Source of the DNA: a virus
DNA: 10,937 nt
UHGV virus genome: UHGV-0193172
Direction: 5' to 3' (one strand)
The position numbers were made by a program, and so were the translations under genes. Of this stretch, positions 163 through 9,941 are shown in pieces. The notes beneath the pieces were generated by a model. The model did no database searches, was not told the origin of the DNA, and saw only the letters and a list, made by a program, of their open reading frames with translations. Position 1 is the stretch's first letter. Each line of letters begins with the position of its first letter.

Positions 163-216
163 TGGCCGTTTCCGGCCTGCATGGCATGATTTGCGCTTTT
201 GGACGGGAGATTCAGT

Positions 217-816
217 GTGCTGATTGGTTATGTAAGGGTATCAACAAATGACCAGAATACAGACCTGCAACGAAACGCTCTTGTTTGCGCAGGATGTGAA
301 CAAATATTTGAAGATAAATTAAGCGGGACAAAGACAGACCGACCGGGATTAAAACGCGCTTTAAAGCGGCTTCAAAAAGGTGACACGCTGGTTGTCTGGA
401 AACTGGATCGCCTCGGGCGAAGCATGAAACATCTGATTTCTCTCGTCGGGGAACTACGGGAGCGAGGGATTAATTTTCGCAGTCTGACCGACAGCATAGA
501 TACATCTTCTCCAATGGGGCGTTTTTTCTTCCACGTTATGGGTGCCCTGGCTGAAATGGAACGTGAATTAATTGTTGAACGTACACTGGCCGGACTGGCG
601 GCAGCGCGCGCACGGGGGCGCACAGGCGGACGTCGCCCGAAGCTGACAAAAGAACAGCATGAGCAAATAGCAAGGCTGATCAAAAACGGTCATGACAGGA
701 AACAACTGGCGATCATTTACGACATCGGCATATCGACGATTTATCGTTATCACCCTGTAGGCGATATACAGGCTGAAGAAACAACCAGGCAGACTCAGGA
801 AAATGAAAACCGCTAA
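217..816 (+). CDS. pin: Serine-recombinase DNA invertase, Pin/Gin/Hin/Cin family
   Basis: ORF track 199..816; the product from the GTG at 217 (read as MLIGYVRVSTNDQNTDLQRNAL...DTLVVWKLDRLGRS...SLTDSIDTSSPMGRFFFHVMGALAEMERELIVERT...) is near-identical to my recollection of E. coli Pin and closely related to Hin/Gin. GGGAGA Shine-Dalgarno 7 nt upstream of GTG 217. Start codon choice (GTG 217 vs TTG 199) is uncertain. Confidence 0.9.
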   Translation: MLIGYVRVSTNDQNTDLQRNALVCAGCEQIFEDKLSGTKTDRPGLKRALKRLQKGDTLVVWKLDRLGRSMKHLISLVGELRERGINFRSLTDSIDTSSPMGRFFFHVMGALAEMERELIVERTLAGLAAARARGRTGGRRPKLTKEQHEQIARLIKNGHDRKQLAIIYDIGISTIYRYHPVGDIQAEETTRQTQENENR

Positions 817-7382: not shown

Positions 7383-8405
7383 TTAATACGCATTTAATTT
7401 AAATTTGTATTTGCTTTCTATGTAATGGATAAATTCAATTATGCTTTTTTCTATCGCGTCTAATATATGAATATATCCATCCCGATTTAAGGTCCTATCC
7501 AACTCAAAATGATGAACTATCCCATGTCTATATTGTATGATTTCAGAAATTCGATTCTCAAGGTAATCAACTGATTTTCCAATTCTTTTTTTCTTATAAA
7601 GAATCGCTCTCACATCTATATCTAGCCACTCTTTATATGCTTTGTTTAGGAGGGTTAAGTTTTGAAAAGTGTAATTTCTTGCAATAACACTTTCTATTGA
7701 AATATTTCCTTTCTCTATCTCAAGCAGAATATCAAAATCAACTTTTTGCTTATACGATGTTCTTTTTGCTATTGCGAAAGGATCGTACTTTATAAGTATT
7801 TGAAAAGCTCTAGAGAAAAAATATTCAAACATAGCAACCGCAAAAGGTACTAATCCATTATATATAACTCTACTGGGATCCATACATTGCATATCATCAA
7901 AGTATTCGGATAAGCCGCCATCTTCCGGCAGGTTTAATTTAATAGAAGGTTCAGGTAAGGCATGTTTAACAGCGGAAATCTCATGATGAACATGATTAAA
8001 TATTGAAGAAATGCCACGACTGATCGGACTACTAGAATCCTCCCATAGAGGAGCGTATCTATTTTTCCCATAATCACCTATAAGTGTTCCACCAAAAAGA
8101 CTCCTTGCGCCTTTTAGAACATCATTAAGCATTTTTACATCATGCCAACTAGCGCTAGATAAATTACGCACATGCAATGCCCATTTATTACCAGATATGT
8201 GTAGTTCGTCATTTGAAACAGGATATATATCAGCCGAAACTCCATCTGTAGATTTGAAGTCCGTATCATCAAACCAAGAGTAATTTAACGTTCCTTGGGG
8301 CCATTCCCACAAATGTTTACACCTTTTAAAACCTAAATTTTCAAGATAATTTTTAAGTTCGTTTCTAGTTGCTTTTTTAGGGTACAGCGTTATATCTCTT
8401 CCCAT
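7383..8405 (-). CDS. Hypothetical 340-aa protein in an AT-rich cargo island; candidate HEPN-like (R-x4-H) abortive-infection/defence protein
   Basis: ORF track 340 aa; ATG 8405 with AGGTGA-like Shine-Dalgarno upstream. Region about 7263-8560 is visibly AT-rich (roughly one-third G+C by eye) against >50% in the flanking phage genes. Predicted-helical C-terminal half carries RHGIVH (aa 293-298). No family recognised by eye. Confidence 0.6.
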   Translation of the reverse strand: MGRDITLYPKKATRNELKNYLENLGFKRCKHLWEWPQGTLNYSWFDDTDFKSTDGVSADIYPVSNDELHISGNKWALHVRNLSSASWHDVKMLNDVLKGARSLFGGTLIGDYGKNRYAPLWEDSSSPISRGISSIFNHVHHEISAVKHALPEPSIKLNLPEDGGLSEYFDDMQCMDPSRVIYNGLVPFAVAMFEYFFSRAFQILIKYDPFAIAKRTSYKQKVDFDILLEIEKGNISIESVIARNYTFQNLTLLNKAYKEWLDIDVRAILYKKKRIGKSVDYLENRISEIIQYRHGIVHHFELDRTLNRDGYIHILDAIEKSIIEFIHYIESKYKFKLNAY

Positions 8406-8596: not shown

Positions 8597-8857
8597 ATGT
8601 TCCGTTGTCCGCTTTGTGGCGCATCTGCCCGTATCCGCACAAGTCGTCCGGAAAATGATTCAAACACCGTGCGGCAAAAGTATTACCAGTGTAACAATCT
8701 GGAATGCGGCGTATGCTTCTCAACACTGGAAGCTTTCCATAAATTCACATCGAAACAAGCCTCCGGCGTTCACTCTTCAGAAGGTATCCCGTGGCATGAG
8801 CTGCCAGCTTCACACAGGGGAAACAATCAGATGAGTTTGCCTTTACCTCAGAATTAA
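8597..8857 (+). CDS. ogr: Ogr/Delta-family zinc-finger late-gene transcriptional activator
   Basis: MFRCPLCGASARIRTSR...YYQCNNLECGVCF resembles my recollection of P2 Ogr (MFHCPLCQHAAHARTSR...YHQCQNVNCSATF) with the C-x2-C...C-x4-C zinc finger; it follows D as in P2. 86 aa, C-terminally longer than the P2 Ogr I recall. Confidence 0.85.
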   Translation: MFRCPLCGASARIRTSRPENDSNTVRQKYYQCNNLECGVCFSTLEAFHKFTSKQASGVHSSEGIPWHELPASHRGNNQMSLPLPQN

Positions 8858-9047
8858 CAGGCAGAATTGCCGGAGTAACAAAAAAGCGATAGATTACGCG
8901 CGGGTGCCTTTCGGCTGATGGTCGGAGGGAACACCCGAAGGCCAGATGTGGAAAGGCCCCGGAAAACACTTTTGTTTAACCGAGGCCCTAACCGTCTACC
9001 CTAAGCAAGTGAAAGGTTAGCGCCTCTCCGGAAAAGGAGCAAGTGCT

Positions 9048-9188
9048 ATGTCGCAAAAATCGCTTACGGCCATCACGTTCTGCGTGACGGTAATCCTCAT
9101 CATCTGGATGTTACACGGTTCGCTGTGCGAAATACGGATGAGCTTCTGGGGAGCGGAGTTTGCGGCGTTCTTACAGTGTAAGCAGTAA
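9048..9188 (+). CDS. Hok/Gef-family type I toxin (HokA-like small membrane peptide, 46 aa)
   Basis: Not in the ORF track (too short). ATG 9048 with AAGGAG Shine-Dalgarno 8 nt upstream. MSQKSLTAITFCVTVILIIWMLHGSLCEIRMSFWGAEFAAFLQCKQ has the N-terminal TM helix plus the SLCE(I/L)R and E(V/L/F)AAF(L/M) signature of Hok/Gef peptides (compare Hok ...[21 protein letters not shown] and HokA ...SLCELHIKQESYELAAFLACK, from memory). Confidence 0.7.
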   Translation: MSQKSLTAITFCVTVILIIWMLHGSLCEIRMSFWGAEFAAFLQCKQ

Positions 9189-9267
9189 GGAAACCGCGAC
9201 GGGGGAGCAATCCCCCGTCAATCGGTTGCCAGGGTAAGGCCGAAGTGGCACCCAAATTTAAATTGAG

Positions 9268-9300
9268 GCCCACCAGTAAGAGTGGTGGGCTTAACACTTG
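9268..9300 (+). terminator. Putative terminator / 3' stem-loop of the hok-like transcript
   Basis: Stem GCCCACCA / TGGTGGGC (9268-9275 / 9283-9290) followed by a T-rich tract; preceded by a GNRA-looped hairpin GACGGGGGA-GCAA-TCCCCCGTC (9198-9219). Confidence 0.35.
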
Positions 9301-9323
9301 TTTAAATTTGAAAGGAACTCTTT

Positions 9324-9620
9324 ATGAGTGAAATGGTATTTTGTCGCGGATGCGGCAAGGAAATACATAAAGATGCCACATCCTGCCCCAATTGTGGAGC
9401 ACCTCAAAGAACAGCAAGTTCAAAAAGCAGAATGACAGCCGCACTACTGGCTTTCTTTTTAGGTGGTCTTGGTGCACACAAATTTTATTTAGGTAAAGTG
9501 GGGCAAGGATTCCTTTACCTTATTTTTTGCTGGACATTCATTCCGGCAATCGTGGCATTTATTGAGTTTTTTATCTATCTATGCACCTCTGATGAAGATT
9601 TCGCCCGCAAATATGGCTGA
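9324..9620 (+). CDS. Small membrane protein with N-terminal zinc ribbon (CxxC...CxxC) and C-terminal TM2-like domain
   Basis: ORF track 98 aa; AAGGAA Shine-Dalgarno upstream; CRGCGKEIHKDATSCPNCG zinc-ribbon motif followed by two hydrophobic helices (LLAFFLGGLGAHKFYLGK...LYLIFCWTFIPAIVAFIEFFIYL). Confidence 0.6.
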   Translation: MSEMVFCRGCGKEIHKDATSCPNCGAPQRTASSKSRMTAALLAFFLGGLGAHKFYLGKVGQGFLYLIFCWTFIPAIVAFIEFFIYLCTSDEDFARKYG

Positions 9621-9647
9621 TGCCTAACGGACGAATCAGAATGACAA

Positions 9648-9680
9648 ACCCGCAGCGTAAAAATTGCGGGTTTTCTTTTT
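9648..9680 (+). terminator. Rho-independent terminator after the Zn-ribbon/TM2 gene
   Basis: Stem CCCGCA / TGCGGG around a 10-nt loop, followed by TTTTCTTTTT (9671-9680). Confidence 0.65.
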
Positions 9681-9885
9681 GTCACCCTCACACGTGAGGG
9701 CATCATACTTAAGACAAAGCCCGCAATATTGCGAGCTTACCCTACATCTCGAAAATGTGGTCACTGCGTGGACACGCTCTGACATAAATCCTTTTATATC
9801 AATTAATTAAATCATCATTTTTTTCATCAACAAGGATTTTCACGTTTGTGTTACCTGTATGAGACGAGAGTTAACCGGACAAGTG

Positions 9886-9894
9886 TGCCATAAT
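9886..9894 (+). promoter_or_regulatory. Putative extended -10 promoter element for flk (TGcCATAAT)
   Basis: TG at 9886-9887 followed by CATAAT at 9889-9894, about 48 bp upstream of the flk ATG; no good -35, consistent with an extended -10 promoter. Confidence 0.3.
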
Positions 9895-9941
9895 CTCGCG
9901 GCCAGGCATACTTGCGAAGATTTCAGGTATAAGGATACGTA

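Follow-up and report, generated by a model that had tools for sequence, protein, structure and literature searches.

How can an antisense RNA hold a toxin of the Hok family in check when the reading frame through which such control is known to act is missing from the toxin's leader? This question is raised by a hok gene in the UHGV virus genome UHGV-0193172, of which a stretch of 10,937 nucleotides (nt) was analyzed; this whole stretch is hereafter referred to as the window. The hok/mok/sok system of plasmid R1 (parB) is the textbook case of indirect antisense control, exerted by the RNA Sok via a leader open reading frame (ORF), mok. We found that the locus in the window has the other elements of this system, and that mok is absent. 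The best overall explanation, and in our judgment a fairly probable one, is a mok-less hok/sok cargo cassette in which the hok initiation region takes the role of the R1 mok initiation region. What is new is this undocumented mok-less layout of a common Hok subfamily, together with a testable refolding model of its control. The subfamily keeps the fold-back and processing logic of R1 and is a natural comparison for the question of why R1 needs mok at all.

The toxin gene and the limits of the cassette

The toxin gene was located as follows:

9048-9188, plus strand: hok toxin gene, 46 amino acids (aa), MSQKSLTAITFCVTVILIIWMLHGSLCEIRMSFWGAEFAAFLQCKQ; matches Pfam PF01848

A first-pass annotation of the window, made from the letters alone, had assigned this peptide to the Hok/Gef family by its signature and had asked for a profile search. 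The search bears the assignment out: the peptide matches Pfam HOK_GEF (PF01848) with 30.1 bits (gathering score 22; E = 3.7e-7) over profile positions 5-42 of 42. The narrower NCBIfam models are not reached (HokA, 35.8 bits versus a cutoff of 89; Hok subfamily, 23.6 versus 73), and the peptide therefore belongs to a divergent Hok subfamily. In BLASTP, identity to R1 Hok is 39% over the C12..L42 core, including SLCEIR and AAF. Residues M1, K4, C12, T14, L26-C27-E28 and E37 are present, the R1 counterparts being C16, T18, L30-C31-E32 and E41. All hallmarks of the Hok type are found, i.e., a length of about 50 aa, a basic N-terminus, a single hydrophobic helix and the conserved C..T...LCE....E pattern; the residues invariant within the subfamily are G24, C27, E28, A36, E37, A39-A40, L42 and C44. 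The peptide differs from its 52-aa R1 homolog in length and in its LQCKQ C-terminus. A Shine-Dalgarno (SD) sequence, AAGGAG, lies at 9034-9039, 8 nt 5' of the hok ATG; the strong SD noted earlier is thus real, but it is not distinctive, since R1 hok has AAGGAG too.

The gene is under purifying selection: 24 distinct hok coding sequences (CDS) encode only 5 peptides, with a median ratio of nonsynonymous to synonymous divergence (dN/dS) of about 0.08. All homologs begin with MSQK or MLQK, and the longer entries in databases arise by C-terminal read-through or frameshift, none by extension at the N-terminus. Frameshifted alleles (after ...SFW, then ERSLRRSYSVSS...) or stop read-throughs were found in some E. 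coli genomes (P0025, P0030, P0037 and P0038; further cases are P0002, P0005, P0007 and others), and these are presumably inactivated copies.

The gene had been described as unannotated, which does not hold. The 466-nt region around it (8858-9323) is present with 100% identity in several complete genomes, where RefSeq annotates the ORF as WP_000078920.1, "Hok/Gef family protein". Furthermore, a survey of Hok diversity (2026 preprint, Escalera-Maurer et al., bioRxiv 10.1101/2025.08.07.668861) includes the exact window peptide under id 1628 and places the 46-aa subfamily in the 60%-identity cluster 72. Two members of this cluster were cloned in the survey, 72_1621 (V15A, one residue off the window peptide) and 72_1589 (Stx-phage type); 42 of the 45 Hok constructs were toxic, and the three non-toxic ones named belong to other clusters. 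Because the exact peptide is catalogued and its one-residue variant is among the toxic constructs, the toxin is already known and effectively validated; the locus is an annotated and catalogued member of the Hok family, and the toxin gene itself is ordinary. The survey, which also reports enrichment of hok in prophages, considered coding sequences only. It calls Mok identification "not trivial" and did not attempt it; neither the RNA architecture of cluster 72 nor its lack of mok is described there.

The limits of the cassette were set by comparison of genomic contexts:

8867-8895, plus strand: hok promoter, -35 box TTGCCG at 8867-8872, 17-nt spacer, -10 box TAGATT at 8890-8895
8902-9253, plus strand: full-length hok mRNA unit, 352 nt, the conserved cassette

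A promoter of the form TTGnnn, 17-18 nt, TAGAnT, located 6-7 nt 5' of GGGTGCC, is kept in at least five unrelated upstream contexts. Homology between contexts starts at the hok -35 box and ends exactly at GGCACCC (9247-9253). A generic promoter scan found none, because the hok and Sok promoters both match 8 of 12 consensus positions, below the threshold of 9; they were located by homology and conservation instead.

The Rfam model RF01794 matches 8902-9061 on the plus strand over its full length (50.2 bits, E = 3.8e-10; gathering score 59), with corresponding matches at 602-754 (minus strand) in record L004 and at 182-353 (plus strand) in L092. Although the model is named "sok antitoxin", our controls show that it describes the hok leader and not the Sok strand. 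In E. coli K-12 (118 bits), it spans the stretch between the 5' end of the mRNA and the hokC AUG on the hokC/mokC strand, opposite the annotated sokC, and in an R1-type plasmid (87 bits) it covers the hok-sense leader. The same controls identify 8902 (GGGUGCC...) as the homolog of the hok mRNA 5' end, and they rule out the plus-strand match as a Sok gene, since the model lies on the hok-sense strand and has its end on the hok AUG. Subfamily relatives score 31-54 bits, so that the model misses the whole subfamily at its gathering score of 59; more generally, the RNA parts of this locus escape both gene-finders and Rfam when default thresholds are used. Taken together, we consider it practically certain that the segment from about 8867 to 9253 is a self-contained hok/sok-type type I toxin-antitoxin cassette with fold-back architecture.

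A leader without mok

The following frames precede or adjoin hok:

8946-9020, plus strand: leader ORF, 24 codons, putative SD GAAGG at 8937-8941; ends 28 nt before the hok ATG
From 9043, plus strand: 14-codon GTG frame

Both had been seen by eye, and both were recovered by the program. In a scan for ATG, GTG and TTG starts, no ORF with an upstream start overlaps hok in the window, and all three frames are shut within 9002-9020 by TAA (9002-9004), TGA (9010-9012) and TAG (9018-9020). The position that corresponds by homology to the AUG of mokC and of R1 mok has no start codon. The in-frame TAG at 9018-9020 is invariant in all 46 full-length alleles, and relatives have an in-frame stop 5' of hok as well, either TAG at -30 (TGA at -39 in the Citrobacter allele L011) or TAA at -9; in the Salmonella and Klebsiella copies, no AUG occurs anywhere in the target region. 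The earlier remark that no mok frame was obvious thus extends to the 46 alleles and to the Salmonella, Klebsiella and Citrobacter relatives, and it is very probable that canonical mok is missing from the whole 46-residue subfamily.

In R1, mok begins at an in-frame ATG 57 nt 5' of hok, inside the target stem-loop, where the window has no start codon and an invariant TAG instead; the leader is also shorter here (146 nt versus about 170 nt). The K-12 locus hokC/mokC/sokC (gef) is a chromosomal homolog with sokC in the homologous position; its mokC is an in-frame 19-codon extension that starts in the target stem, and there is no counterpart of it here. Saturation mutagenesis has shown that R1 depends on the start of mok and on translation that reaches the hok SD (PMC9841398). 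Nevertheless, the pattern of substitutions suggests that hok is expressed in the mok-less subfamily: among the 33 alleles in which no leader ORF reaches the hok SD, 17 CDS encode 4 peptides, with a median dN of 0 and dS of 0.11. A literature search found no paper on a mok-less hok, nor any on the peptide or the leader sequences in paper texts.

The leader ORF itself is probably incidental rather than a conserved equivalent of mok. Its frame and end vary between alleles because indels shift the frame, the stop ranging from -68 to -27 where the ORF does not enter hok. Its AUG (8946) and another one at 8918 are conserved in E. coli alleles, where they lie on opposite strands of a conserved helix. 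A long ORF in the +2 frame crosses hok in about 20 alleles and could be taken for an interrupted mok; this candidate was rejected, as its start AUG differs between alleles, and the AUG at -130 has no SD and lies inside the tac helix described below. An open +2 frame would be expected from the hydrophobic (NUN) codon bias of hok.

It should be noted that RefSeq phage records label the window homolog "MokW-like host killing". This label is a misnomer, and a misleading one for phage copies, because the ORF is Hok-like and no Mok is present here. Nor is the locus hokW-sokW of the Stx2 prophage Sp5/933W, which we ruled out: HokW is a 51-aa Hok (MKQQKAM...) with a classical GGGUGCUUGAGGC leader, and the Stx2-phage relative of the window locus (82% identity) is a separate 46-aa gene, distinct from hokW. 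For hokW-sokW, a contribution to lysis on induction has been shown (Takada et al. 2021, PMC8621323).

Fold of the mRNA, the predicted antisense RNA and the proposed gating of hok

Folding of the 352-nt unit gave a minimum free energy (MFE) of -155.4 kcal/mol, with a z-score of -6.3 against dinucleotide shuffles. The elements of the fold are as follows (all on the plus strand):

8902-8916: tac, the 5' fold-back partner, from MFE folds; pairs with 8948-8960 in the processed mRNA
9238-9253: fbi, the 3' fold-back inhibitory element; pairs with tac and is the last conserved segment of the cassette
9222-9236: target-masking 3' segment; pairs with the antisense target 8997-9012 in the full-length mRNA (MFE and centroid)
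9018-9048: SD-sequestering hairpin, burying the hok SD up to the A of the AUG; -12.3 kcal/mol, z = -2.4
9198-9219: GNRA-capped hairpin, 9-bp stem, GCAA loop; -19.7 kcal/mol, z = -5.4
8982-9026: Sok-target stem-loop of the processed mRNA, YUNR loop CUAA at 9001-9004; -16.6 kcal/mol, z = -3.6

The pairing between the 5' and 3' ends, for which folding of the mRNA had been proposed as a check, is a 15-bp tac/fbi helix (8902-8916 with 9238-9253) that occurs in both MFE and centroid structures. The SD-sequestering hairpin is present in the MFE and centroid structures of the full-length RNA and is broken in the MFE structure of the RNA truncated after the GNRA hairpin. In the truncated RNA, tac pairs with 8948-8960 and the target stem-loop forms; both features match the Rfam consensus, in the case of the stem-loop the target hairpin of RF01794. 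The cost of opening the target loop is 6.5 kcal/mol in the full-length form versus 0.9 in the processed one.

Across the 46 alleles, the full-length structure is 96.3% paired, versus about 40% when the partners are slid. Two-sided pair changes number 17, versus 6.0 +/- 1.7 in shuffles, and are concentrated in the target-masking helix, where five pairs have such changes (one of them being C-G in 23 alleles, U-A in 10 and U-G in 8), and in the GNRA hairpin, which has three compensatory pairs and a loop that stays GNRA across variants (GCAA, GUAA, GAAA). These controls flatter the structure, which was derived from the window sequence and tested on closely related alleles. The tac helix is paired at 95% in the full-length and 99% in the truncated form; tac/fbi is near-invariant in E. 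coli and covaries when compared with the Salmonella copies (CGGC/GCCG to CGAC/GUCG). The SD hairpin is 96.8% paired with only one-sided (wobble) changes, and the target stem-loop is 100% paired and nearly invariant, its Y-U-N-R motif being kept in all variants while N and R vary.

The stable GNRA hairpin pointed out in the 3' region by the first-pass annotation was thus confirmed. By analogy with the terminal stem-loop of the truncated R1 hok mRNA (PMC9841398), it is expected to form a protective 3' end on the processed hok mRNA, the form that can be translated, and the processing site was placed accordingly. A scanner called the same hairpin on the minus strand (9197-9220, followed by CGGTTTCCTT) as the sole terminator-like site in 8800-9400, and in this orientation it could stop transcription arriving from the right. 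The other hairpin noted earlier is also real, although its limits are more exactly the following:

9266-9293, plus strand: second hairpin, 10 bp; -18.1 kcal/mol, z = -4.0; outside the cassette

This hairpin is specific to its context and was rejected as a hok terminator or cassette part, since homology across contexts ends at 9253 and unrelated sequence follows in other loci; it may serve as a read-through terminator in this particular prophage.

An antisense RNA had been anticipated over about 8900-9050, and the predicted Sok fits this interval:

About 9007 to about 8947, minus strand: predicted Sok, about 60 nt, with a single-stranded 5' tail of about 14-18 nt, a terminator-like hairpin and UUUCC
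9014-9042, minus strand: Sok promoter, -35 box TTGCTC at 9042-9037, 17-nt spacer, -10 box TAACCT at 9019-9014

The 5' tail is complementary to the target loop, and the predicted RNA folds at -23.2 kcal/mol (z = -2.8). Its position is homologous to that of the annotated sokC of K-12, by analogy with which its ends were placed. None of the 46 alleles deviates in the -10 box, which overlaps the invariant in-frame TAG; the -35 box overlaps the hok SD and is unchanged in 44 of 46. The pairs of the Sok hairpin are standard in 98% of cases when read on the antisense strand versus 89% on the sense strand, one invariant C.A of the sense strand reading as U.G; over 25 variants, the mean MFE is -24.6 kcal/mol (antisense) versus -16.4 (sense). 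This strand bias is the signature that would be expected of a functional Sok.

Comparison to R1 shows how far the likeness goes. The toxin family (PF01848) is the same and the leaders appear homologous (RF01794, 87 bits in R1 and 50 here, the latter below the gathering score); shared features are the fold-back of tac on fbi, the hairpin that ends the processed mRNA and the YUNR target loop, and in both systems the Sok -35 box lies over the hok SD and the -10 box in the 3' arm of the target hairpin (R1 boxes TTGCGC/TATCCT, same position). The earlier suggestion that regulation may differ from R1 therefore holds for mok, which is absent, but not for the other elements, which are of R1 type and not exotic. 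A further difference is that the SD hairpin here abuts the target hairpin and competes with it. Because segment 9018-9026 is common to both, the two structures are mutually exclusive, and therefore Sok binding would shut hok translation directly.

The sequence of events that we propose is the following. A weak constitutive promoter would give the 352-nt mRNA (8902-9253), which, as the conserved sequence elements suggest, would be inert at full length, with tac and fbi paired, the target masked by 9222-9236 and the hok ribosome-binding site held in the hairpin 9018-9048. If the R1 paradigm applies, slow 3' trimming to the GNRA hairpin (about 9220) would free tac, which would then pair with 8948-8960 and let the target stem-loop 8982-9026 form. 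Structure and energy suggest that this stem-loop would take 9018-9026 from the SD hairpin and make hok directly translatable, and that the short-lived Sok, by binding the target hairpin at its YUNR loop and 5' arm, would release GGUUAGCGCCUC and allow the SD hairpin to re-close. By analogy with other systems, the Sok duplex would probably be cut by RNase III. Once Sok synthesis stops, Sok would decay unreplaced, the 46-aa Hok would be made and the inner membrane would be damaged.

Such antisense-induced refolding, by which Sok directly shuts hok translation, is a tentative proposal that we take seriously without holding it to be probable. To quantify it, we calculated the opening energy, i.e., the free energy required to open the hok initiation region (SD to +6), for 13 alleles, each as full-length RNA, as processed RNA and as processed RNA in which the Sok target was kept single-stranded. 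Examples are given below:

Window: full-length 10.6, processed 8.3, processed with Sok 11.1 kcal/mol
L003: full-length 14.7, processed 8.5, processed with Sok 13.5 kcal/mol
L011: full-length 14.2, processed 7.8, processed with Sok 15.7 kcal/mol

The region goes from closed to more open (by 2.3-6.4 kcal/mol) and back to closed in 10 of the 13 alleles. In another one (L097), the cost drops by only 1.0 and then climbs by 6.5, so that the effect is mainly re-closing. In the R1 control, the hok initiation region is constitutively closed (17.7/17.4/16.1), in contrast to the state-dependent region predicted here, whereas the mok initiation region falls from 13.4 to 9.1 on processing; this result agrees with published genetics. 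The mean unpaired probability was also tried as a measure of accessibility and dropped as uninformative, since it did not reproduce the known behavior of R1. If the refolding model is correct, it would explain why an in-frame stop codon is tolerated in the invariant -10 box of Sok. The joint reading, in which the whole 46-residue subfamily (cluster 72, found in prophages of E. coli and Shigella and in chromosomes of Salmonella, Klebsiella and Citrobacter) lacks mok and uses a direct Sok refolding switch, is likewise possible rather than probable in our estimate.

Several observations weigh against a mok-less cassette gated in this way. The Rfam score is below the gathering score of the family (50.2 versus 59), and the ends of Sok and the 3' ends of the hok mRNA were placed by inference only. 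The alleles have a mean column identity of 89%, a kinship that makes the shuffle controls overstate significance; the tac/8948-8960 helix, the target stem-loop and the SD hairpin fit all alleles, being too invariant for proof by covariation. Non-canonical start codons lie outside the frame scan, and the leader ORF crosses the hok start in 4-5 alleles (with a UGAUG overlap in Citrobacter L011) and has a plausible SD in E. coli. As for the energies, in two of the 13 alleles (L010 and L095) the hok initiation region does not respond to the state of the mRNA, the processed form still requires about 8 kcal/mol for opening, and the mean unpaired probability of the region barely moves (0.33/0.42/0.33).

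A rival reading concerns the leader ORF, and the question is whether control is R1-like after all, 8946-9020 being a relocated and shortened mok with its initiation blocked by Sok. A ribosome ending at the UAG 9018-9020 would then unwind the SD hairpin, so that hok translation would be coupled or re-initiated. The Sok duplex begins at the AUG of this ORF, 44 of 46 E. coli-type alleles retain the ATG and 41 of 46 the GAAGG that lies 4 nt 5' of it, and the unpaired probability of the AUG rises from 0.07 in the full-length to 0.65 in the processed form. The Citrobacter allele L011 has a GUG at the same place that opens a 34-codon ORF ending in UGAUG on the hok start, the leader ORF crosses hok in 4 alleles, and R1 genetics indicate that only translation up to the hok SD matters (PMC9841398). 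However, both AUGs sit in the two strands of a conserved helix, and thus their conservation may be structural, and opening the initiation region of the leader ORF takes 6.3 kcal/mol whether the mRNA is full-length or processed. In the window allele, the opening cost of hok drops from 8.3 to 6.4 kcal/mol when a ribosome is parked at the leader stop, but frame and stop shift with indels, and at the commonest stop (-43) a ribosome raises this cost to 10.9, as Sok does. The equal cost of 6.3 and the allele-dependent effect of the ribosome (6.4 versus 10.9) disfavor a conserved coupling role, and the leader start is absent from the Salmonella, Klebsiella and S. diarizonae copies, yet their Hok peptides are intact and conserved. 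We therefore regard control through the leader ORF as unlikely.

Control could also involve neither refolding nor a leader ORF, with Sok triggering decay by RNase III or occupying a ribosome standby site. In tisB/istR-1-type systems, the antitoxin RNA binds far 5' of a structured toxin initiation region and acts indirectly, on an mRNA that needs processing; IstR-1 acts on tisB by occupying a single-stranded standby site 5' of that region. These and other type I systems without a leader ORF resemble the locus in upstream antitoxin binding and indirect action; tisB/istR-1 differs in that its toxin belongs to an unrelated family, its antitoxin IstR-1 is encoded divergently and is no true cis-antisense RNA, and tac/fbi fold-back is lacking. 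In the window, the Sok duplex ends about 27 nt 5' of the hok SD, too distant for direct occlusion, and the structure of about 8 kcal/mol left in the processed initiation region would favor a need for standby. RNase III dependence has been reported for R1 Sok and sokW, and two alleles lack a refolding effect. Set against this, the opening energy depends on the state of the mRNA in 10 of 13 alleles and the two hairpins have segment 9018-9026 in common, which argues for a contribution of refolding; since decay and refolding are compatible, this alternative differs only in which effect dominates, and as an account of the dominant effect it appears rather improbable. Far less credible still is an inactive relic, comparable to several K-12 chromosomal hok loci, in which loss of mok silenced hok and the cassette hitch-hikes. 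Premature mok stops 5' of hok do abolish Hok synthesis in R1 (PMC9841398), frameshifted and read-through hok alleles occur in databases, and the roughly 20 of 63 distinct leader variants with a long +2 ORF across hok could be read as having an intact mok, the window (TAA 9002) being a null. These long ORFs, however, begin at differing AUGs across alleles, and an open +2 frame is expected from the codon bias of hok. Moreover, the peptide is under strong purifying selection even where no ORF reaches the hok SD (the 17 CDS encoding 4 peptides), conservation extends to both promoters, tac/fbi, the target loop and the 3' hairpin, and the cassette occurs in many contexts and in about 28% of complete E. 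coli genomes. The mok-less cassette with hok in the role of mok thus remains our preferred reading of the locus.

Genomic setting and neighboring genes

The stretch derives from an E. coli chromosome that harbors a P2-like prophage of the Peduoviridae, with P88, Gemsvirus and Xuanwuvirus as relatives. The tail genes are followed, in this order, by gpD, a 340-aa ORF, ogr, hok, a TM2-domain gene and then the chromosomal flk. The hok/sok cassette is cargo (a moron) just 3' of ogr in a P88/Gemsvirus-type prophage, and its position after the ogr stop codon is constant in most P2-like prophages that have it. Other carriers are Stx phages, plasmids and tandem chromosomal copies in Salmonella. At least 80% of the 466-nt region is present in 1,530 of 5,426 complete E. 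coli genomes (about 28%), the hok region is matched by 35 plasmids, and relatives of the 46-aa peptide are encoded on 311 IMG/VR viral contigs; the hosts of homologs are E. coli, Shigella, Salmonella, Klebsiella oxytoca and Citrobacter.

The locus had been placed at the prophage-chromosome junction, which is not supported. In each of the 5,426 genomes, homology to the core genome sets in again at 9821, with the 5' end of pdxB and the region upstream of flk; since the 121 bp matched there (about 9821-9941) are annotated as pdxB, the prophage seems to have integrated at the flk-proximal end of this gene. The cassette is thus near the prophage end only, about 570 bp to the left of the junction, with one gene in between:

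9324-9620, plus strand: TM2-domain gene, 98 aa, N-terminal zinc ribbon and TM2 domain (PF05154, 68.6 bits)

An addiction or stabilizing role of the cassette, as suggested earlier, is plausible, and prophage retention, phage exclusion and help with lysis on induction are plausible candidates for its biological role.

The TM2 gene sits between the hok cassette and a terminator, AAACCCGCAGCGTAAAAACTGCGGG, that in many other prophages lies within about 20 nt 3' of the cassette and is found here at 9647-9675. Only 7 of the 5,426 complete E. coli genomes match at least 80% of the interval 9254-9941, which includes the TM2 gene. Because of this displacement of the terminator and the rarity of the interval, the TM2 gene looks like a rare insertion, a second cargo gene next to hok, and the same rarity ruled it out as a partner of hok.

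Some further occurrences of the cassette deserve mention. Salmonella enterica chromosomes have two tandem 46-aa hok cassettes each (L095, 601-741 and 1240-; L096, 601-741 and 1105-1245), about 500-640 bp apart, with near-identical leaders and differing target loops and peptides. The E. coli-type cassette was also found in records of a Planococcaceae metagenome-assembled genome (L005), a Vagococcus sp. (L006) and Xanthomonas pisi (L009), with peptide identities of 100%, 100% and 74%, respectively, and ogr-type sequence adjoining the cassette in L006; these copies most likely represent assembly contamination and not the true host range. About 20 IMG/VR prophage contigs (locus length 1641; e.g., L016, L021 and L024) stop exactly at the hok stop codon and thereby lose the 3' untranslated region with the GNRA hairpin and fbi, which looks like a prophage-caller boundary at the gene end. 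In S. enterica subsp. diarizonae, the small RNA STnc540 (Rfam RF02082, 185.7 bits; L010, 1809-1995, minus strand) lies about 100 nt 3' of the end of the hok mRNA unit, i.e., about 170 nt past the hok stop codon.

A PADLOC search gave no match for hok, the TM2 protein or the 340-aa neighbor. The latter ORF (7383-8405, minus strand), located between gpD and ogr, has no NCBIfam match and a sub-threshold match to HEPN_RiboL-PSP (22 bits versus 28.4), and its RefSeq copy in ETEC1706 is annotated as shorter (295 aa); it may be a cargo or defense gene in the variable region of P2-like phages.

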